Positions 24,230 through 50,292 of a DNA stretch of 56,327 nucleotides are shown here, one piece after another. A program made the position numbers and the translations under genes. Each line of letters opens with the position of its first letter. The stretch's first letter is position 1. The DNA comes from a virus (lineage: Duplodnaviria; Caudoviricetes): IMG/VR virus record IMGVR_UViG_3300022665_000963, positions 1 through 56,327 of that record; one strand, written 5' to 3'. The notes beneath the pieces are model-generated. The model was given only the letters and a program-made list of their open reading frames with translations. It did no database searches and was not told the DNA's origin.

Positions 24230-24865
24230 ATGACGTTTGATAATGTAAAGTTGGATGAGGACATAGAGAAAGGAGCCGAGGGAGGCCCTGGATATAAGAC
24301 CTCTGTACTCATACTCTCCTCAGGTTTTGAGCAAAGGAATATTGACTGGTCACGGACCCGTGGCCTGTGGGATATCTCCTATGGCATGGATAAGAAGGCC
24401 AACCAGGAGATTGTGCTGGCCTTCTTCCACGCGCGCAGGGGCAGGGCGATCGGCTTCAGGTTCAAGGACTGGACTGACTTCCAGATCGGCAGTGATAATC
24501 CAGACGCGCCCCAGGAGATCTTCGTGACAGACGGGGCTAAGGACAAGTTCCAGGTCGTGCGTCGTTACGTGTCAGGACCCACCACCTTTGACCGGGAAAC
24601 CACCAGGCTCGTCACGGGTACGGTACGGGTGTTCCTGGACGCTGTGGAACAGTTCTCCGGCTTCACGATAGATGTTGATACTGGCGTGATAGATTTCACG
24701 GTCGCACCAACCACAGGGCAATCGCTCGGCATAATATGCGAGTTCGATGTGCCAGTGAGATTCGATATAGATGAGTTAACAATGCGAGCCGAGCGGGATG
24801 ATGTATTCAGCTTCCCCCGGATACCCCTATTGGAAGTGAGGGAGGAACTGGTGGACGTTTCATGA
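24230..24865 (+). CDS. distal tail protein (DUF2460, GTA-like)
   Basis: GGPGY, SGFEQRN, FFHARRGRAIGFRFKDWTDF and FDVPVRFD motifs. Confidence 0.9.
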   Translation: MTFDNVKLDEDIEKGAEGGPGYKTSVLILSSGFEQRNIDWSRTRGLWDISYGMDKKANQEIVLAFFHARRGRAIGFRFKDWTDFQIGSDNPDAPQEIFVTDGAKDKFQVVRRYVSGPTTFDRETTRLVTGTVRVFLDAVEQFSGFTIDVDTGVIDFTVAPTTGQSLGIICEFDVPVRFDIDELTMRAERDDVFSFPRIPLLEVREELVDVS

Positions 24866-25965
24866 AGACTATCTCCTCAGGATTACAGACACATCTCGCC
24901 GGTGAGACGACCACTCTTGCGACCCTCTGGCGTATCGTACGTAAGGACGGTACTCAATTCTTCTTTACCGACCTTGACAAGAATATCCCCTTCGACGGGG
25001 ATACGTATATAGCGAGTAGTGGGTACAGTAGGACCGCTATAGCCAGCGATGTGTCCTTATCGGTCGATAATCTGAATGTCGAAGGCCTCTTCGACAGTGC
25101 CGAGATTACCGAGGTGGACATTCGTGCTGGTAAATTCGACTTCGCGGAGATATTCATATCCACCATAAATTATAAAAGTGTGGCGGATGGTGTCGTCAAG
25201 ATGCGCCGGGGTCACTTTGGCGAGGTCACCCTGACCAAGCAGGGAATATTCCGCACAGAATTACGCGGTCTCGCCCAGCAACTCGCCCAAAATATCGGGG
25301 AACTGTACCAGCCTGAATGCCGGGCTGATCTTGGCGATTCGCGCTGTAAGGTCCCCATCGACCCTGTCCTACGTACGAACAATACGGCTTTTGTCCTGGG
25401 GGACTTTATCAGGGTAAACACGACCGGAGGTACTGGCCAGGAGATATTCGAAAACAGAATATATGAGTGTACAGTGGCGGGAACGACCGCCGGCTCTCCC
25501 CCAACATATGACACGGTCGTAGACAACACGACTGTCGATGGAACTGCCACCTTCACAGCACGACAGGCCTGGATGAGACACGCCGTGGTTGACACGGTAA
25601 CTGATAACAAGGTGTTCACTCTGACGGTAGCGTTCGACGAGACCAGGGCCGTCGATGACTACTTTAATGGGGGTGCTATCGAGTTCGAGACAGGCACCAA
25701 TGACGATGTTATTCTCGAGGTAAGAGACTGGATACAAAGCACCAGGACCCTGACGGTTTTCATCCCCGCGCCCTTTACTATTGTATCCGGAGACAAACTT
25801 CGACTGTATCCTGGCTGTGATAAACGCTCTACGACTTGCATAACAAAATTCGTGATTCCAAATTCTAAGGACTTTGCAAATGGTAATATCAAGAACTTCC
25901 GAGGAGAACCTTTTGTCCCAGGTCAAGACGAATTAGTGAGGTACCCAGATGCAAAGTCAGGTTAA
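24862..25965 (+). CDS. baseplate hub protein (DUF2163/BR0599, GTA-like)
   Basis: WRIVRKDG, CRADLGDSRC, GCDKR...C and NFRGEPFVPG motifs. Confidence 0.9.
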   Translation: MKTISSGLQTHLAGETTTLATLWRIVRKDGTQFFFTDLDKNIPFDGDTYIASSGYSRTAIASDVSLSVDNLNVEGLFDSAEITEVDIRAGKFDFAEIFISTINYKSVADGVVKMRRGHFGEVTLTKQGIFRTELRGLAQQLAQNIGELYQPECRADLGDSRCKVPIDPVLRTNNTAFVLGDFIRVNTTGGTGQEIFENRIYECTVAGTTAGSPPTYDTVVDNTTVDGTATFTARQAWMRHAVVDTVTDNKVFTLTVAFDETRAVDDYFNGGAIEFETGTNDDVILEVRDWIQSTRTLTVFIPAPFTIVSGDKLRLYPGCDKRSTTCITKFVIPNSKDFANGNIKNFRGEPFVPGQDELVRYPDAKSG

Positions 25966-26383
25966 CAGAAAAGATATTATAAATGAAGCACGGAAATGGA
26001 TCGGTGTGAAGTGGAGACACCAGGGTCGTACGAAATTGGGTATTGACTGCGCAGGACTCGTGATCCTAGTGGGTAAGGCCCTGGGCGTCGTCGACTACGA
26101 CACGACCAATTACCAGCGTCGGACGCACGGCACCAGCTTCCTCAAGCACTTCAGAATGAACATGGAAGAAAAGGCCATCGTGGATGCTCAGCCGGGGGAC
26201 GTGTTACTGTTCCGGGACAACCAGTTTCCATGCCATTCGACCATTGTCGCGGAGATTGGTGGAGCACTAACAATCGTCCACGCTCACGCTCTCAGGAAAA
26301 AGGTACTGGAGGAGAGACTAAACCAGGGTGACTGGATGGCACTCCGAGTTGCGTGTTTCAAATACAAAGGATTGAATGACTGA
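25949..26383 (+). CDS. NlpC/P60 tail-associated peptidase
   Basis: WRHQGR...GIDCAGLV, PGDVLLF and CH...HAH motifs. Confidence 0.9.
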   Translation: MQSQVNRKDIINEARKWIGVKWRHQGRTKLGIDCAGLVILVGKALGVVDYDTTNYQRRTHGTSFLKHFRMNMEEKAIVDAQPGDVLLFRDNQFPCHSTIVAEIGGALTIVHAHALRKKVLEERLNQGDWMALRVACFKYKGLND

Positions 26384-29300
26384 TGGCCATACTACTCGCA
26401 GTCGGCGGAGCCGCTCTCGGTAGCGCGATTGGGATCGGCGCAAGTGCCGGATGGATCGTAGGTACGCTCATCGGCACTCTTCTCTTTCCACCGGCCGGTG
26501 TAACCACCGAAGGTCCTCGGCTCGGCGATTTATCTGTCACCTCCTCGGCCTACGGGGTGACCATACAGAAGAGTTTCGGCACGATACGCATGGGGGGTAA
26601 TATGATCTGGTCCACGGGTATAGAGGAAGTCAAGAACGAGAAGAAAGTAGGGGGCAAAGGTCTGGGGGCTTCTCAGACTCAGATCACTTTTGAGTATTTC
26701 GCCTCATTCGCTATCGCCTTTGGCGAGGGCGTGACGGAGGATGTTCTACGCATATGGGCTGATGGTAAACTGATTTTCGACAGGACATCCACTTCCGACG
26801 ATATATCGAAGGCCAACCTGTCTTTCAGGTTCTATCCTGGTGATGAGACCCAGGAGCCCGACAGCTTGATAGAAGCGGATATAGGGGTAAACAGTACTCC
26901 TGCTTTCAGGGGTATCACGTACATAGTATTTGACACGTTTCCCTTGAAGGATTATGGCAACCGTATACCCAGTATTACGGCGGAGATAACGTCCAATGCC
27001 TCAGCAGCTCTCAATGTCGAGACGGCGGACTTTTTCACTGTCGCGGAGGGTGGAATAGCGGATAGCTTCAGGAACGATCAACTTCTGCCGGACTTCGACA
27101 GAGGGGTATTCTACACCGCCAAGTCCTCCGCAACCCTTGGGCAGAATATACTTCGTAGATTTCAAACTAGGACGATGGTGGAGGACCGTCAAAAAGCGTA
27201 CACCCAGGACAAGACCCCTGAGAACATCAGTACCATGGTGCTCCAAGCGGTACTAAAAAACGGGGCCATCATCATGCAGAGTGGAACAGGCAACGGCACA
27301 CCATTCTCCCTGATCAATCCTGACTCTCTGGATATCGTCGATACATTCGGGGATAACACTGGCGGTGTGGGAGTCTTCACCACGACCCAGTTCCCACATC
27401 CCATTGACAGCACAAGCACACAGGTCACGGTTCAGGGTACCACGGGCCTGGAATTCTACTATATAACCACAGCTCTGTTGAGTAGAAACTTCGGGATATT
27501 GAAGGTGACAGACTCAGCGCTGACCTATGTATATGACTCCGAGACCGCTGGAAACTCCTTCCCAAGTGGTGTAGTGGCGGCCTCTGGTCCGGGGGCCATT
27601 GGGCAGAATTTTGGTGAGTTCTACATCCTCCACAAGAATGCTAGTGTGCTGAATGTGGGTAATTCATTTGAATTAAGTAGAGTCCGAATTCCCGCTGGAG
27701 CATTCCATGATTTCACAACAGGCGCGGTGGCCGGGGTGGAGGTCAGTCTCATAAAGGTCTACTCGGCGGCTGATCTGTTCCCTTCCGCTGCCTTCTTAGG
27801 TAATTTCGTGGGATTAATGTACGATGAGACCGATGACACCATAATATTTGAGTTCCAAGCCGTTAATGCCAGTTTCGTAGAGATCGGCAAGAGAATAGTC
27901 AAGATAGATCCCGATACGGGAAATCAACTCTGGTCGACTGACGTACCCATAGGCGTTAGGACACAGAAAAATTCATCTAATATGACCAGACTTACAGACG
28001 GGGTCTATTCCAGGGTCGCTGGGACAACGAGTTTCTCGATCAGGACGGCCACAGGCGAGATTTTCGACAATACGACGGGCTGGCCCATAGCCAATGGCAA
28101 CAGCAAGGCGGCCTACTGGGACAGCAAGACGAGCTCATACATAGGCAATATCTTAGCTGGAGGCACTCTTCACAAGTGGCTCTTCTTCCGGGGTGCCGGC
28201 GAGGGAGCTCTCCTGTCCGATGTTGTCCAGGCTATATGCCTTGACACTGGGCTCGCGGCTTCCGACATAGATGTAACTGACCTGGCATCCGAGACTGTCC
28301 CAGGTTACATGATAGGTAGACAGACTACGGCCCGTAACTCTATCCAAGTGCTGGCACAGGCGTTCTTCTTCGACGGGATAGAGAGCGACTTTCTACTGAA
28401 GTTCACCCTGAGGGAAGGCAAGACCTCAACGGCCACGATACTGCAGAGGGACCTGGGAGTTCTTGACAGTCAGACTGGAGATTTTTTCCAGGAGACGCGT
28501 ATCCAGGAGGTCGAACTGCCCAGGCGTTTTTCCGTGACATTCCTCGACAGGGATGAAGATTATACCCAGGGCAATCAGAGTGCACAACGCATATTAAGTC
28601 CTGTATCATCCTCGCAGTCCAACAATGAGATGGGATTACAGATAGCGGCGGCATTCACCTCCGACTTTGCAAAAAGGATAGCTGAGAAACAACTCTTTTC
28701 GGCTTGGATAGAGAGATCAAACTATAAGATAACAGTTGCCTGGAAATTTCTCGCGATCGATCCAGCGGATATCATTACCATCATAACGGATGACGGGACG
28801 ACCTTTCGCGGTCGCGTCACCCAGAGTGATGTAGGGGCGGGCTTCGTGATGGATATCACTAGCGTCAGTGAGGACGCCGCACAGTATACCTCGACGGTCG
28901 TCGCTGACCCAGGGACCGGCGTTCCAGATCAGGAGTTCCTGTCGGTCGCGGATACAAAGCTCATCATGATATGCTCTCCGTTACTGAGGGACAGTGACGA
29001 TACGGGCAGGACAACCTCCCAGATCTATTTTGTCATGGGTGGTTTCGGGCAACCGGGCTGGACCTCTGGCACCCTGTTCAAGTCGGCTGAGGGTACCGAG
29101 TTCACAGATGTTGGGTCAGTGGTGAACGAGGTGGCCTACGGCTCCGCATCAAATGCTCTAGGAGATGTTGTGGATCCTTTCTCGACAGATGAGACAAATA
29201 CCCTAACGATATTCATGACCACTGGCTCCAGCCAGGTAGTGTCCACCACTCAGCTTGAGATGGTTAACGGAGCCAACCCCGCGGCGCTCATACACTCGAA

Positions 29301-29925
29301 CGGTATCGATGTAGAGATCATCCAGTTCCGTGACGTAGTCACAAACACGGACGGGTCTTTCACCCTGAGTGGATTGCTCAGGGGCCGGAGGGGCAGTGAG
29401 AGCTTCACAGATAGCCATTCGATCGGTGACACCTTTGTCCTACTCGACGCAATCACAGCGGGAAATCTTCAGCTCACCCTGAGTGAAGTCGATCAGACAC
29501 GTTTCTACCGGGCAATAACTACCGGGCAGTTATTCGAGGACGCCCTCAGCATAACTAAGGCCAGCCCGGGCAATGACCTCAAGCCATATGCCCCAGTGTC
29601 ACAGGCTGCAGCTGCGAGTGGGAATGATATCGACTTCACCTGGGAGCGTCGAACTCGTGTTGGTGGCGGACTCAAGGACGGGGTAGGCGGGGTGCCCCTG
29701 AATGAGGATACCGAGTCATACGAGATAGATATCTTTGATAGCCCAGGCGGTACCATCGTGCGTACGATCACCGGGTTATCCACGACGTCCATAACATACA
29801 CCGAGGCACAACAGATTACCGATGGTTTTTCACCACCGCTGAGTCAGATTACAATTAGCATTTTTCAGATAAGCGCACAGGTCGGTCGTGGATTCACAAA
29901 AGAGGTAACATTGAATGTCGAATAA
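26383..29925 (+). CDS. central tail fibre / host-specificity protein (gpJ/GTA megatron-like)
   Basis: 1180 aa; GPRLGDL, RIWADGKL, PAFRG, YGNRIP and LSGLLRGRRG motifs. Confidence 0.9.
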   Translation: MAILLAVGGAALGSAIGIGASAGWIVGTLIGTLLFPPAGVTTEGPRLGDLSVTSSAYGVTIQKSFGTIRMGGNMIWSTGIEEVKNEKKVGGKGLGASQTQITFEYFASFAIAFGEGVTEDVLRIWADGKLIFDRTSTSDDISKANLSFRFYPGDETQEPDSLIEADIGVNSTPAFRGITYIVFDTFPLKDYGNRIPSITAEITSNASAALNVETADFFTVAEGGIADSFRNDQLLPDFDRGVFYTAKSSATLGQNILRRFQTRTMVEDRQKAYTQDKTPENISTMVLQAVLKNGAIIMQSGTGNGTPFSLINPDSLDIVDTFGDNTGGVGVFTTTQFPHPIDSTSTQVTVQGTTGLEFYYITTALLSRNFGILKVTDSALTYVYDSETAGNSFPSGVVAASGPGAIGQNFGEFYILHKNASVLNVGNSFELSRVRIPAGAFHDFTTGAVAGVEVSLIKVYSAADLFPSAAFLGNFVGLMYDETDDTIIFEFQAVNASFVEIGKRIVKIDPDTGNQLWSTDVPIGVRTQKNSSNMTRLTDGVYSRVAGTTSFSIRTATGEIFDNTTGWPIANGNSKAAYWDSKTSSYIGNILAGGTLHKWLFFRGAGEGALLSDVVQAICLDTGLAASDIDVTDLASETVPGYMIGRQTTARNSIQVLAQAFFFDGIESDFLLKFTLREGKTSTATILQRDLGVLDSQTGDFFQETRIQEVELPRRFSVTFLDRDEDYTQGNQSAQRILSPVSSSQSNNEMGLQIAAAFTSDFAKRIAEKQLFSAWIERSNYKITVAWKFLAIDPADIITIITDDGTTFRGRVTQSDVGAGFVMDITSVSEDAAQYTSTVVADPGTGVPDQEFLSVADTKLIMICSPLLRDSDDTGRTTSQIYFVMGGFGQPGWTSGTLFKSAEGTEFTDVGSVVNEVAYGSASNALGDVVDPFSTDETNTLTIFMTTGSSQVVSTTQLEMVNGANPAALIHSNGIDVEIIQFRDVVTNTDGSFTLSGLLRGRRGSESFTDSHSIGDTFVLLDAITAGNLQLTLSEVDQTRFYRAITTGQLFEDALSITKASPGNDLKPYAPVSQAAAASGNDIDFTWERRTRVGGGLKDGVGGVPLNEDTESYEIDIFDSPGGTIVRTITGLSTTSITYTEAQQITDGFSPPLSQITISIFQISAQVGRGFTKEVTLNVE

Positions 29926-38351: not shown

Positions 38352-38807
38352 TTACTGGAGAAAATTGTCGTATTTTGAAGCTGCGATAATTATATCAGTC
38401 GCCGTGGCCTTTGGGTCTACGGCGGCATAATTTTTTAAGGCATCCTCAGTCATTCCACGCTTGAGAGCGCCCTGAAAATCCGCTGGTATAAGGTAGCGCC
38501 CCGCGGAGGCTCCCTGCCCGACTTGGATCAGTACGAAGGCCCTGCCACCAGCTTCTATCCGTCTGTTGAGCCAGGGCAGCTGGGCTGGTTCAAACCGGAG
38601 CTTTATCTTGGTCCGTGGGTTACTGGGCCGGGCCTCGCATTTCAACTCTATCCAGAACTGTATTCCCTTCAAGCAGCCCTCGACGTCTGCCATACCCATC
38701 ATCACGCTATTTTCGATACGATTCAGGTGAAGGTCCTTCTTGAATATGCGCTTGGTCTTGTTTAACCACCCCCACAATCGAGCTTCTCTGACTTTACCGT
38801 TAGCCAT
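38352..38807 (-). CDS. VRR-NUC/RecU-like Holliday junction resolvase
   Basis: E..LW, GMADV, WIELK and Q..WL PD-(D/E)xK motifs. Confidence 0.8.
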   Translation of the reverse strand: MANGKVREARLWGWLNKTKRIFKKDLHLNRIENSVMMGMADVEGCLKGIQFWIELKCEARPSNPRTKIKLRFEPAQLPWLNRRIEAGGRAFVLIQVGQGASAGRYLIPADFQGALKRGMTEDALKNYAAVDPKATATDIIIAASKYDNFLQ

Positions 38808-39142: not shown

Positions 39143-39583
39143 TTAATCGTGGAGCCATCCTTCTAATTGGACGACCTCTATTCCCACGGTCTCTAGCATA
39201 ACGAGGGCCATGTCCATTTCCTGTACCCAATTACTATTCCTATCTATAGGAGGAGTAACCACTCGTTTTATTCCGTTCTGGATTAGGGCACCAGCGCACT
39301 GGGCGCAGGGAAATAGGGTCACATACATCGTCCAGCCGCGTACCTTACTGGGACAGTTGTCGATAGCATTCTGCTCGGCATGTATTATGATCCGGTTCTT
39401 GTCCTCCCTGCTCAGGTGCTCCAGCATGGTATCATCCAGTTTACTTGGAAGGCCATTGTACCCCCAGGACACGGAGCGTCGGTCCGGTGAGACGAGCAGG
39501 GCCCCGACCCTACGACGAGGGTCCTTGGACCATTCCTGCACGTCCTGGGCCATACTGAAGAACCGCTTATCCCACTTATTCAT
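39143..39583 (-). CDS. dCMP deaminase
   Basis: SKDP..RVGA, GYNG, HAEQNAI and PCAQC zinc motifs. Confidence 0.92.
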   Translation of the reverse strand: MNKWDKRFFSMAQDVQEWSKDPRRRVGALLVSPDRRSVSWGYNGLPSKLDDTMLEHLSREDKNRIIIHAEQNAIDNCPSKVRGWTMYVTLFPCAQCAGALIQNGIKRVVTPPIDRNSNWVQEMDMALVMLETVGIEVVQLEGWLHD

Positions 39584-40428
39584 AGTACGAGCTTCGGACA
39601 GGGGTTCCAGGAGTTATGGGCCACCCGGCCGGACAGTCTGGAGACTAGCGTCACATAGTCATCGGGCCTGTCGACTATCTCCTTGACGGACCAGCACGGT
39701 AGGTTGGGTTCCACGGCAGAAATCCAGGTGCTACGCTTCCCGATCAGGCAGTCCTCTATAGCCTGCTCATGGGGGTCATAGCTATGGGGATGTGCCAGGG
39801 TAAAGTGAAGCGTACCGGGGGTGCAGTTACAGCTGGCGGCCACCGCGTCGAGCGTCAGGGCATAGCCCATAACGTCGTAGGGCAGTCCCACGAAGACGTC
39901 GGAGGACCGTATGAACACTGAGCAGTGGATCTTACCCCCTATGCGGGAGAGGGTGAAGCCCACAGGGCAGGGGATATTCTTGGGCTGATTGGGCGCCCCC
40001 AGGCCATCTGTACGGGGGTCCCAGGCGGAGATGAACAACTGTCTGTTGGTTGGGTTGCCCGACAGCTCATATATAGCCATGGCCAGCTGATCCCTGCCGA
40101 AGTGCTTACGCCAGCGGTAACCGTAGGCCGTCTTGAGCTTGCCGTCCTCAACGAAGTCCTGCCATATCTTGTGAGCCTTCTTGAGTATCCAGTCAGGCGA
40201 CTGTGTGCCCATGAACTGCCAGGCGGTCTCGGCCGCAGCGACCCGGGGCCAGTAGCGCCTGTTTCCCGCGACTGGCAACCTACCGTTAGACAGGTCGAGC
40301 TTGAAGGAGTAAGCCCCCTCCAGGGCCCGGATATCGACGCCCGTCCGAGCATTCGTCTCGTCCCGGCCGTGGTGATACACCTCTGATAATAGACGCTTAT
40401 AGGCTTTAGCGAAGGTCTCGACTTTCAC
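39580..40428 (-). CDS. thymidylate synthase-family enzyme, probable dCMP (hydroxy)methylase
   Basis: AYGYRWR, catalytic PC, RSSDVFVGLPYD (Asp in place of ThyA Asn177), HSY; GTG start overlaps the upstream TGA. Confidence 0.85.
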   Translation of the reverse strand: MKVETFAKAYKRLLSEVYHHGRDETNARTGVDIRALEGAYSFKLDLSNGRLPVAGNRRYWPRVAAAETAWQFMGTQSPDWILKKAHKIWQDFVEDGKLKTAYGYRWRKHFGRDQLAMAIYELSGNPTNRQLFISAWDPRTDGLGAPNQPKNIPCPVGFTLSRIGGKIHCSVFIRSSDVFVGLPYDVMGYALTLDAVAASCNCTPGTLHFTLAHPHSYDPHEQAIEDCLIGKRSTWISAVEPNLPCWSVKEIVDRPDDYVTLVSRLSGRVAHNSWNPCPKLVL

Positions 40429-41462
40429 AGTAGATTCTCCATGAGTTGCTTGACGTTGAACTCCAGGTCCTCGAGCGTGCCGTTGTTGTCCAGCACGTAG
40501 TCCGCCATCCAGGGCTCGACAGTACAGGATTCCGAAGCCTCGCGAGGAACGAAGTCTGACCTGTCCACCCATATGATGGTGTCCACGATGCCCGCATTCT
40601 TGAGGGCGTTCAGTTCCGCCTTGCTTCGCAACCCACAGTAGACGTCGTGGTCCTTGAATATGGCGCGTCCCAGGGCCGTCGCGTCGGGCCGGTTGAGGGC
40701 CCTGATGGTATCGTACCACAGGGCCCGGTGGTTGTGGCGGTCCTGGAAGCACTCCGCGAAGTTGTTATACTTACCCTTCAACCCCGCCAGTTCTGGTGTG
40801 GTCTCGGCCTCTATGCCTGCAAAAATGACGTTCTCCGCGCAGAACAGACTGCTCGACGTGAAGCGTCTTCCGTACTGGTCTCGCAGCATCTCCGATACTG
40901 TATCCTTACCGTGCCTGCCGTGGCCGATCACCAGGATTTTACGGTCCCTCAGGGTCGTCCCTCGTAGTTCTTCAGGAATTATTATCCCGATATCAGTGAT
41001 AGGGACCTCCATGATGGGTATGGGATCGGATGCCGGTTCGGGTAACCGATGGGCGATTAGTATTTGTTCACGCGTGATTGTGAGGTAGGGCCCAAGGTCC
41101 GGGGGCGTCCAGCCCTCTGGCTTGACGGCGTCGAAGCCCAGTGAACCCGGGCGCTTGGATATGGCGCCCTGCCGCTTGGCCATGTTGGCACGGTGCACCT
41201 CCTCGAAGGCCGCGCCGGGTGTTATCCCCATCTCTATGAGGGTACCCATCGCCACGTATATCAGGTCCAGCAGACCGTCGGTCACCTGCTCCAGATTTAC
41301 ATTGCCTACACCTTTTTCGATTTCGTCCATTTCTTCACACAAATGGCGACGGCGAAAATAACATCTGTCGTGACTCAGTAGTGTTGGCTTGTCTGGGATG
41401 GGTAATCCGATTATGTCCCGGTTAAAGCGTAACACCATCTCATGCATTTTGTCTAAGGTCAT
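40425..41462 (-). CDS. MazG-like NTP pyrophosphohydrolase fused to a P-loop dNMP kinase
   Basis: EEMDE...DGLLDLIYV...EVHRANMAK followed by GHGRHGKDT...DNNGTLEDL. Confidence 0.85.
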   Translation of the reverse strand: MTLDKMHEMVLRFNRDIIGLPIPDKPTLLSHDRCYFRRRHLCEEMDEIEKGVGNVNLEQVTDGLLDLIYVAMGTLIEMGITPGAAFEEVHRANMAKRQGAISKRPGSLGFDAVKPEGWTPPDLGPYLTITREQILIAHRLPEPASDPIPIMEVPITDIGIIIPEELRGTTLRDRKILVIGHGRHGKDTVSEMLRDQYGRRFTSSSLFCAENVIFAGIEAETTPELAGLKGKYNNFAECFQDRHNHRALWYDTIRALNRPDATALGRAIFKDHDVYCGLRSKAELNALKNAGIVDTIIWVDRSDFVPREASESCTVEPWMADYVLDNNGTLEDLEFNVKQLMENLL

Positions 41463-41910
41463 CGCACTGTCTCCTATCAATATACCAATTCAGTTTGCCA
41501 TCATTGGGCTGTATGTCCAGCCGACCGTCCACGAATATCGCCCAACTATCTGCGGAGTATTTACCACACCCAGGCATCTTCAAGACGTCATCATAGCACT
41601 CTGGTTTTCCCTGTAACCAAGCACGGGCGAACTTTGGTAAAGTAATGGCCCTACGTCGCCACAGGCCCAGAGGCTTCAGTATTTCGTGCAGGGTCTCGGC
41701 CTCCGCCTCGGCCAGGGACTCGGGCGTTAGGTGCCTGGCCAGTATGTACTGGAAGGCCGGCTCGGCTTGACCTTCCCAGTTTGTAAGATTTACTAATTGA
41801 CACGCAACGAGCATCCAAAATGGATTATACTTAAGTCTTTCTTGAAACAATTGTCCTTTCTTCGGAACAGATAGCTTTGGCGAGTTTGATGACGTCTTCA
41901 ATCCAGCCAA
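41440..41910 (-). CDS. HhH-GPD DNA glycosylase, MBD4-like
   Basis: LKPLGL..RRA, HhH MPGCGKYSADSW.IF, QPNDGKLNWY (catalytic Asp position). Confidence 0.8.
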   Translation of the reverse strand: MAGLKTSSNSPKLSVPKKGQLFQERLKYNPFWMLVACQLVNLTNWEGQAEPAFQYILARHLTPESLAEAEAETLHEILKPLGLWRRRAITLPKFARAWLQGKPECYDDVLKMPGCGKYSADSWAIFVDGRLDIQPNDGKLNWYIDRRQCDDLRQNA

Positions 41911-42203
41911 CTATCGTCGTCGGCTACAACCTTAGGGGTCTCGTCGAACGGATCAGTACAGTTCCCAGGCAATTCTACCGTGGCGATATCGCCTACCAGT
42001 ACGTAGCCTATGCCGTGGTCCTTCTGTAGCATGTACAGGTAGGACAGGGCATTCGACCGCGTCATGGTGAACTCTGCCATCACCTCACGGATTGAGCGCG
42101 AGTTGTCGTTGTCCAGGAACCACTTCAGGAACTTACCCCTCTTACTCGAGACCTTGGGAACACACGTCCTTGCCACCCTTCTTGCGGTTGTCCTCGCCAC
42201 CAC
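41898..42203 (-). CDS. HTH-like protein, possibly the frameshifted C-terminal part of the upstream gene
   Basis: SIREVMAEFTMTRSNALSYL helix-turn-helix; no convincing own start. Confidence 0.55.
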   Translation of the reverse strand: MVARTTARRVARTCVPKVSSKRGKFLKWFLDNDNSRSIREVMAEFTMTRSNALSYLYMLQKDHGIGYVLVGDIATVELPGNCTDPFDETPKVVADDDSWLD

Positions 42204-50013: not shown

Positions 50014-50292
50014 CTAAGCTAGGGGGTCATTCTTCACATGGCTCAAGGCCGTCTCGTAGAGATCGAGGAGGGCGTCTTCTTCCTGCAGATCGGTTCTGTC
50101 CTTCTTACGTCGCAGGATCAACTTACGCAGGGTCTTCTTGCACAGGCCGACGGCCTTGGCCTCTGCATATATATCCCTCTTGTCGTCGTTGAGGTCTGCT
50201 ATCTCCGCCTCGATCCGCTCGATGCGCACGACGTACGCACGAAGTTGGTCCGCCGTGCTACCCCCCAGGGCGTTGTGATAGTTATCAGTCAT
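50014..50292 (-). CDS. gapR: GapR-like nucleoid-associated protein (DUF2312/UPF0335)
   Basis: QLRAYVVRIERIE...DIYAEAKA.G...RK....EEDALLDLY. Confidence 0.88.
   Translation of the reverse strand: MTDNYHNALGGSTADQLRAYVVRIERIEAEIADLNDDKRDIYAEAKAVGLCKKTLRKLILRRKKDRTDLQEEDALLDLYETALSHVKNDPLA

Follow-up and report, generated by a model that had tools for sequence, protein, structure and literature searches.

The question raised by this locus is why a phage should carry, at the head of a gene array resembling the 5-methylcytosine (5mC) synthesis module of Xanthomonas phage Xp12, a small DNA glycosylase gene of the HhH-GPD family, and which base the enzyme would remove. The locus lies in a DNA of 56,327 nucleotides (hereafter the window), which is the whole IMG/VR record IMGVR_UViG_3300022665_000963 of an uncultured virus, estimated to be 89% complete, and the gene occupies positions 41440 to 41910 on the minus strand. 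Judged from its sequence, the product is almost certainly a glycosylase of the type of the catalytic domain of MBD4. By analogy with MBD4 it would probably remove thymine (T) or uracil (U) opposite guanine (G), and the role that we somewhat favour is the repair of 5mC that has been deaminated in the DNA of the phage itself. The gene and the sites on which this reading depends are as follows.

41440..41910, minus strand: predicted MBD4-type HhH-GPD DNA glycosylase gene, 156 codons counted from TTG at 41910, plus the stop codon TGA at 41442-41440
41901 (codon 4), minus strand: alternative TTG start of the same gene, leaving 153 codons (start region read)
41842..41844, minus strand: codon of Gln23, equivalent to MBD4 Gln449 in the PDB alignment and invariant in 41/41 close homologs
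41776..41787, minus strand: codons of Leu42 to Trp45, the DNA-penetrating loop (PDB alignment)
41557..41571, minus strand: helix-hairpin-helix hairpin G114-C-G-K-Y118 (PDB alignment and pairwise alignment to E. coli Nth)
41500..41502, minus strand: codon of Asp137, predicted to be the catalytic Asp from its alignment to MBD4 Asp560

An earlier note on this DNA, made from the letters alone, had read the open reading frame (ORF) with exactly these limits, which we reproduced together with the 156-residue translation from the minus strand, and the motifs that it quoted (FQERLKYNPFWMLVAC, LHEILKPLGLWRRRA, GCGKYSADSWAIF and QPNDGKLNWY) all occur in the translation. It had placed the protein nearer to MBD4 than to MutY or endonuclease III (EndoIII, Nth), and proposed a profile search and a phylogeny as checks. 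Among curated family models, Pfam gave HhH-GPD (PF00730) alone, at 30 bits barely above the cut-off of 26.2, and no methyl-CpG-binding domain (MBD) was found in the 156 residues; no PHROGs family matched; NCBIfam returned nth, alkA and mutY only below threshold (nth TIGR01083 at 23.3 bits against a cut-off of 211.7). In a phmmer search of the PDB, the top 15 matches were all MBD4 catalytic-domain chains (E = 2.4e-12 to 4.7e-11, query residues 20-145; 6vjw, 4dk9 and 1ngn best at E = 2.4e-12 and 50 bits), followed by EndoIII at E = 8e-7 and MutY at about 0.01. When the family profile, which is alignment A2 of 41 homologs over 144 positions, was searched against the PDB, MBD4 was matched over the whole domain (85 bits, E = 3e-23, positions 13-137 of 144); the alignments to EndoIII (47.7 bits), Mig (1kea, 41 bits) and MutY (31 bits) ended near position 113, before the catalytic Asp.

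The strings that the earlier note had given for MBD4 (sellkplglydlra, gigkygndsyrif and hpedhklnky) are really present in solved MBD4 chains and aligned to the window motifs, and the catalytic Asp that it had included in the match is D137 in QPNDGKL, aligned to Asp560 in HPEDHKL. Its remark on a missing iron-sulphur (Fe-S) cysteine cluster was likewise borne out, as the motif C-x6-C-x2-C-x5-C of E. coli Nth (187-203) and MutY (192-208) was found neither in the window protein, which ends 19 residues past the catalytic Asp, nor in any homolog (0/268). The protein shares the Fe-S-free HhH-GPD subfamily of the MBD4 (MED1) glycosylase domain (1ngn, 4dk9, 4e9e, 6vjw), with loop lengths that match in the family consensus. 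It differs from MBD4 in its modest identity and in two loop residues discussed below; as it lacks an MBD, it is a relative of the MBD4 catalytic domain and not an MBD4 ortholog. Nth, MutY and Mig, the T:G glycosylase of Methanothermobacter, belong to the same HhH-GPD superfamily, and Mig too removes T from T:G, but all three carry a C-terminal 4Fe-4S loop that the window protein does not have.

The residues that contact the flipped base in MBD4 are largely matched. In the accessible part of the structural work on MBD4 (PMC3479182), the pocket consists of residues 447-449, 560-562, Leu466, Gly471 and Tyr540; flipped thymine or 5-hydroxymethyluracil (5hmU) is read by the Val448 backbone, Gln449 (at N3/O2 of the pyrimidine) and Tyr540, Q449A being inactive; Arg468 occupies the space that the flipped base vacates; the orphan guanine is read by the carbonyls of Arg468 and Leu506; Asp560 is catalytic; and cytosine held in the pocket is an inhibitor, not a substrate. 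U and 5hmU are also removed by MBD4 (PMC3479182, and a preprint seen in part). Aligned to MBD4, the window protein has Q23 for Q449, Y118 for Y540, D137 for D560, K139 for K562, L81 for L506 and N41 for N467. Among 151 representatives, counted over the rows aligned at each position, Gln was found at position 23 in 115/126, Tyr at position 118 in 148/150 and Asp at position 137 in 146/146. In the pairwise alignment to E. coli Nth (GVGRK versus GCGKY), Tyr118 falls on the lyase Lys120; since monofunctional glycosylases replace this lysine, according to a review consulted in part, the window enzyme is predicted to be monofunctional.

The family proved to be large and mainly viral. A word-indexed search found 152 homologs, many on contigs of 56-66 kb; more than 150 homologs at E < 1e-35 keep the catalytic residues invariant; and an exhaustive search returned 1694 representatives at E <= 1e-3 and 298 at <= 1e-10, mostly of about 140 amino acids. 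The atlas clusters nearest to the stored homolog P0063 are 90-97% viral. A scan of 185,579 species genomes with the A2 patterns hit 2 loci, which tells little of distant cellular relatives because these patterns are narrow. In a tree of 162 rows and 134 columns, made by a quick method with E. coli nth and mutY (NC_000913.3) as outgroups on long branches, the 160 family rows, one eukaryotic MBD4-type protein included, were split from Nth and MutY (SH-aLRT 91), a split that arises partly by construction because the rows had been picked as hits to the query. The window protein is sister to P0011 (97) in a 24-row group with Xp12 (80), which is nested in a clade of 70 rows (93) and this in turn in one of 101 rows (95), mostly stand-alone proteins. 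The latter excludes the eukaryotic-type P0268, whose C-terminal domain scores 137 bits to MBD4 and which groups elsewhere, in a clade of 7 rows (89); a further clade (99) consists of six long proteins. Eukaryotic-type sequences are thus separate small clades within a mainly viral family; with support below 80 on 87 of the 159 inner branches, the backbone gives no direction between viruses and eukaryotes. The PDB searches, the absent Fe-S loop, the conserved residues and the tree agree on MBD4 over MutY and EndoIII; of the earlier description as a eukaryotic MBD4-like protein, the MBD4 type holds, and the notion of a eukaryotic-like oddity falls with the size and viral character of the family.

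The glycosylase gene is preceded by a small ORF and followed by the three genes of the module.

41898..42203, minus strand: small upstream ORF of 101 amino acids (phrog_11422, weak helix-turn-helix hints), whose stop overlaps the TTG at glycosylase codon 4 as TTGA
40425..41462, minus strand: predicted nucleotide pyrophosphohydrolase of MazG/PRA-PH type (N-terminal half; PF01503, phrog_671 and phrog_18404) with a dNMP-kinase-like C-terminal part
39580..40428, minus strand: ThyA-like gene, predicted dCMP C5-methyltransferase (GLPYDVMG, with Asp at the position of thymidylate synthase Asn177)
39143..39583, minus strand: dCMP deaminase-family gene, last of the module (PF00383, E = 2e-22; phrog_174)

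Within the last 23 nucleotides of the glycosylase gene lie an AGGAG box and the ATG (41462) of the next gene, and the GTG (40428) of the ThyA-like gene overlaps the preceding stop as GTGA; from the overlapping or coupled starts and stops, we regard the four genes as one translationally coupled array with the glycosylase first. The ThyA-like protein is 45% identical to the Xp12 enzyme and has Asp where solved thymidylate synthases have Asn (GVPFNIASYAL), an exchange (Asn177 to Asp) that is described in the available text of PMC8670742 as switching preference from dUMP to dCMP. The accessible parts of two further sources report that the Xp12 ThyA homolog makes 5mdCMP and that a deaminase linked to such a ThyA-like enzyme has a preference for 5mC and works on single-stranded DNA (bioRxiv 10.1101/2024.12.05.627091), and that Xp12 DNA is 5mC-substituted by liquid chromatography-mass spectrometry, with a pathway analysis announced as forthcoming (PMC7653180). 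By homology, the module beside the glycosylase is an Xp12-type module, in which the ThyA homolog is flanked by the pyrophosphohydrolase/kinase and the deaminase, and 5mC very probably takes the place of C in the DNA of the window phage. Residues 269-344 of the 40425..41462 product match dNMP kinase phrog_139 (E = 2e-13), a match seen with PHROGs; a PDB sequence search with this part gave nothing.

Two details of the module deserve mention. The 40425..41462 product is a joined protein of 345 amino acids that matches phrog_38514, of unknown function, over its full length (E = 1e-111), and its Xp12 counterpart is shorter and annotated as a HAD hydrolase. No dihydrofolate reductase homolog was found beyond the deaminase in the window: the ORF at 38355-38807 (minus strand) just beyond it is not one (BLASTP E = 0.96) and matches phrog_2165, labelled DNA helicase, and it occupies the place at which Xp12 and Roseobacter phage RDJL Phi1 have dihydrofolate reductase.

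The same arrangement exists in named phages. By tblastn, the glycosylase was found in 13 deposited phage records, which include both GenBank and RefSeq copies of some phages, at 55-58% identity over 83-87% of the protein: Xp12, FMYAK-P1, MET13-T1, Ep029, YB23, DoCa6, Donnerlittchen (Janthinobacterium) and AXL_1 (Stenotrophomonas). The Xp12 homolog (QNN97216.1, 57% identical) stands at the syntenic place, and in this group the gene is directly followed by those for the pyrophosphohydrolase, the ThyA-like enzyme and the deaminase. It is annotated as a hypothetical protein, and annotations of the other homologs include 'endonuclease III' (Donnerlittchen) and 'ENDO3c domain-containing protein' (AXL_1); in the texts that could be searched, we found no described function for the homologs of this group. 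The Xp12-group proteins share the Leu42/Trp45 signature of the window protein, although these phages are of another lineage (Bosavirus and relatives, with Xanthomonadaceae and Janthinobacterium hosts) and the window phage is nearer to RDJL Phi1.

In order to see how far the association extends, 59 viral loci were reduced to 28 clusters at 85% identity, and one representative of each was searched for ThyA by tblastn. A ThyA-like gene was present in 15/28 clusters, namely 12 of the 13 Xp12-like clusters and L060, L061 and L037, which are phages with T4-type capsid genes. All 14 ThyA-like genes of glycosylase loci that reach the motif have the Asp, and in 15 of the 16 loci having both genes the glycosylase lies 1-2 kb upstream of the Asp-type ThyA gene. 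Other links to cytosine modification occur elsewhere in the family: at L031 a C5-cytosine DNA methylase gene is directly downstream of the glycosylase gene, at L033 the glycosylase lies next to a T4-type DNA alpha-glucosyltransferase together with further glycosyl- and methyltransferases, and among 24 longer relatives scanned for fusions, P0154 is a true fusion of the glycosylase with a C5 methylase. The same scan showed P0182 (406 amino acids) to be fused to the helical domain of a 5-hydroxymethyldeoxyuridine (5-hmdU) DNA kinase (PF18723, E = 8e-43) and P0200 to a SLOG-type domain, whereas the apparent fusion of P0135 with MazG is probably a frameshifted gene call, in which the frame is lost before the Asp.

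Several further observations on these relatives were made along the way. P0182 has the Gln, Tyr and Asp equivalents intact and Arg at the gap-filling position, and its fusion ties the glycosylase family to thymidine hypermodification as well. At L033 (501-5691) the glycosylase is followed by the alpha-glucosyltransferase, a family-25 glycosyltransferase, an S-adenosylmethionine-dependent methyltransferase and a fucosyltransferase-like gene, which makes it a candidate cluster for sugar-decorated hydroxymethylcytosine. On a 305 kb contig from a Methylococcaceae metagenome-assembled genome bin, an MBD4-type gene (L068, 3947-4402; 33% identical) has within about 3 kb genes with a Pol-beta-type thumb, an NAD-ligase-like N-terminal domain and a head domain of poly(A)-polymerase/CCA type; these surroundings suggest a small, closely packed set of base-excision-repair genes, which may belong to a large virus or a mobile element. 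In L030, L043 and L054, which are of jumbo-phage size (250-270 kb), the MBD4-type gene, with Cys42 and Arg45, always comes after a gene for an FkbM-family methyltransferase. Among the contigs with Asp-type ThyA (L069-L123), median G+C was 64.3% with the glycosylase (n = 16) and 57.5% without (n = 39; Mann-Whitney p = 0.002), a difference that we did not use as evidence because the rows are related and host composition confounds it.

From these elements, the following course of events can be proposed. The stand-alone, Fe-S-free, monofunctional enzyme would bind duplex DNA through its helix-hairpin-helix and flip a G-mispaired pyrimidine into the pocket, where Gln23, Tyr118 and the Phe22 backbone would read the thymine or uracil face, while the backbone carbonyls of the Leu42 and Leu81 loops would check the orphan guanine. 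Asp137 would then drive the hydrolytic cleavage of the glycosidic bond, and an abasic site would remain. The substrate would be T, U or 5hmU opposite G. The phage DNA would be built with 5mC through the three downstream genes, that is, the dCTP-removing pyrophosphohydrolase/dNMP kinase, the dCMP C5-methylase and the deaminase, and in such a genome each deaminated cytosine would become a T:G mismatch, which is invisible to uracil glycosylase and from which the MBD4-type enzyme would remove T. The gap would be refilled from a pool dominated by 5mdCTP, and 5mC thereby restored, by the host apurinic/apyrimidinic endonuclease together with ligase and a polymerase, for which the phage encodes a Pol A of its own. 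The phage's own deaminase may be an additional source of damage, as the related one, in the accessible part of its description, deaminates 5mC in single-stranded DNA. The logic predicted here, removal of T from deaminated 5mC opposite G, is that of MBD4, but the expected substrate genome is fully methylated and not CpG-methylated. A preprint of which we saw a part reports that the mouse MBD4 domain, used on its own, clears T:G mismatches from deaminated XP12 DNA whatever the sequence context; as the phage enzyme also has no MBD, the context-independent action that the earlier note expected of it is reasonable.

A number of observations weigh against this repair role. No cytosine-modification gene was within reach in 11 of the 28 viral clusters, and only 16 of 55 viral contigs with Asp-type ThyA had the glycosylase, 5 of the 55 having less than 1500 nucleotides upstream. 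The gene was present in 13 of 58 deposited records sharing the neighbour genes and in none of the 12 Pseudomonas records; RDJL Phi1 and Bosa have the Asp-type ThyA and no glycosylase, by which a strict rule that the glycosylase tracks this enzyme was rejected. Between Xp12 (L001, 3911-4398) and its congener Bosa (L003), about 490 bp containing the gene are replaced by about 90 bp, with flanks aligning at 82-85% identity and no glycosylase remnant found at the Bosa locus, a clean replacement; gp19, the weak tblastn match at the corresponding place in RDJL Phi1, is no homolog by hhalign (probability 1.2%) and has only weak helix-turn-helix hints in Pfam. The gene is clearly a discrete accessory cassette and not a core part of the 5mC module. 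In the part of the MetaGPA supplementary table that we saw, and reading its columns at face value, HhH-GPD is 'depleted' (about 0.74, not significant) and hence not associated with the modified fraction, the entry spanning the whole HhH-GPD Pfam domain, whose model detects the MBD4-type family weakly. In the protein itself, Arg468 of MBD4 is replaced by Leu42 and the pocket Gly471 by Trp45, so that base or partner specificity could differ. Position 42 varies across the 151 representatives (R 61, L 28, Q 24, K 18), as does position 45 (W 65, G 37, R 26); the gap-filling residue appears to be a variable and not a defining feature of the family, though the difference from MBD4 is real. P0154 and the L031 protein both belong to a 32-row clade (95) carrying Trp45, which speaks for Trp45 being no obstacle to action on T:G. 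The start codon is uncertain: neither ATG nor GTG is usable in the start region, and upstream of G19 and L21 only the TTG codons 1 (41910) and 4 (41901) are available, both with a weak ribosome-binding sequence. As G19 and L21 are nearly invariant in homologs, translation must start at one of the two; the collection's own gene call is 153 amino acids long (P0002). Finally, we infer the 5mC of this uncultured phage from homology.

Could these observations be better explained by another function? A general pyrimidine-lesion or uracil glycosylase, acting on U:G, U:A, oxidised pyrimidines and 5hmU in ordinary phage DNA hygiene, would have 5mC genes as neighbours simply through the clustering of nucleotide-metabolism genes. 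The removal of U and 5hmU by MBD4 (described in sources available in part), the clusters that have no modification gene nearby, the lack of enrichment of HhH-GPD in modified metavirome DNA (MetaGPA table, seen in part) and the generic repair setting of the distant relative L068, near Pol-beta-like and ligase-like genes, are consistent with this, and Trp45 in place of the pocket Gly might narrow the room for a C5 substituent. However, Trp45 is also carried by the clade of methylase-fused and methylase-adjacent proteins, where T:G is the expected lesion, the link to cytosine-C5 modification genes recurs in unrelated lineages, and the window gene is translationally coupled to the 5mC module; we therefore think such a generic function unlikely. 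The gene might instead serve the modification system itself or counter-defence, by base quality control, as a hypermodification step or by reversing the damage of a host deaminase defence. Relatives point in this direction, one being fused to the 5-hmdU DNA kinase domain and another lying among DNA glucosyltransferase, other glycosyltransferase and methyltransferase genes, and counter-defence genes often behave as cleanly gained and lost cassettes, as this one does. Yet no HhH-GPD enzyme with a base-exchanging or base-installing activity is known to us, the pocket is made of residues that read T or U and not C (in the part of the MBD4 work available), and a host deaminase system is not in evidence here, which together make this option improbable.

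The earlier note had raised attack on host DNA as an alternative. Base excision from C-containing DNA could, for example, start breakdown of the host chromosome while the 5mC phage genome is spared. Such behaviour would have a parallel in T4, a phage with replaced cytosine that destroys C-containing DNA with other enzymes, and the exchange of Arg for Leu in the penetrating loop means that the DNA-probing surface is not identical to that of MBD4. The alternative was nonetheless left without support: Gln23 and Tyr118, which read thymine or uracil, are conserved; a pocket-held cytosine inhibits MBD4 (PMC3479182, seen in part); the activity would be suicidal for relatives fused or adjacent to sequence-specific C5 methylases, because most cytosines stay unmodified there; and most phages that have this module do without the gene. 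Attack on host DNA is accordingly very improbable. That the ORF is a catalytically inactive DNA-binding remnant or a mis-call, as the lack of an ATG or GTG start, the weak ribosome-binding sequence at the TTG candidates and the Pfam score barely over threshold might suggest, is scarcely credible in view of the strongly matching homologs with invariant catalytic residues, Asp137 foremost, the syntenic gene in Xp12 and the TTGA overlap of start and stop, which is typical of coupled genes. Repair of deaminated 5mC by a T:G-directed glycosylase remains the function that we somewhat favour for the window gene.

Neither the fold family nor the predicted chemistry is new, and homologs have been labelled automatically as endonuclease III or, once, as MBD4; a literature search, which did not cover many subscription papers, found no text on a phage MBD4-type enzyme or on its tie to 5mC phages. 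A wider proposal, which we put forward tentatively and as doubtful in its entirety, is that phage cytosine-replacement and methylation systems have in MBD4-type glycosylases a repair branch devoted to them, repeatedly recruited (by Xp12-like siphoviruses, T4-like phages and methylase fusions) to remove T or 5hmU arising from deaminated 5mC or 5-hydroxymethylcytosine, damage by the phage's own deaminase included, and that eukaryotes took from the viral family the catalytic domain which they afterwards fused with an MBD. If the predicted repair role itself holds, phages that rewrite all their cytosine as 5mC would share a repair answer with animals and plants, a T:G glycosylase tied to the 5mC-making enzyme, and a previously undescribed function would be assigned to a 'hypothetical protein' of the classic model phage Xp12. 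It would also be explained how a 5mC-rich genome limits C-to-T decay. The prediction also frames a testable origin of the MBD4 catalytic domain within mainly viral family diversity. A comparable logic is found in very-short-patch repair, where the T:G-specific Vsr endonuclease is genetically tied to the 5mC-making Dcm, much as the relatives P0154 and L031 are fused or adjacent to C5 methylases; Vsr differs in its unrelated fold and chemistry, being a nicking endonuclease and not a glycosylase, and is specific to sequence context. In practical terms, the family could provide small (about 140 amino acids), context-independent, MBD-free T:G/5hmU:G glycosylases that would serve in methylation sequencing and in mending damaged DNA, uses for which mouse MBD4 sets a precedent, as it is already in use on XP12 DNA (preprint, seen in part).

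The phage itself belongs to the siphoviruses; its portal and head genes are Mu-like and its tail genes are of RcGTA type. At the DNA level it comes closest to RDJL Phi1 and Phi2, two phages of Roseobacter, and at a greater distance resembles phages of Rhodobacter, Xanthomonas (Xp12 included), Stenotrophomonas, Pseudomonas and Achromobacter; the glycosylase gene has 49.5% G+C, compared with 54.3% for the window. A GapR-like DNA-binding protein (50014-50292, minus strand; PF10073, E = 5e-24) and the RcGTA-type tail genes (24230-29922, plus strand; DUF2460, phiJL001 Gp84 N, BR0599, NlpC/P60 and Rcc01698_C) indicate an alphaproteobacterial host. The close glycosylase homolog P0036 (L005) is on a contig of 60,951 bases that one source labels Brucella abortus.

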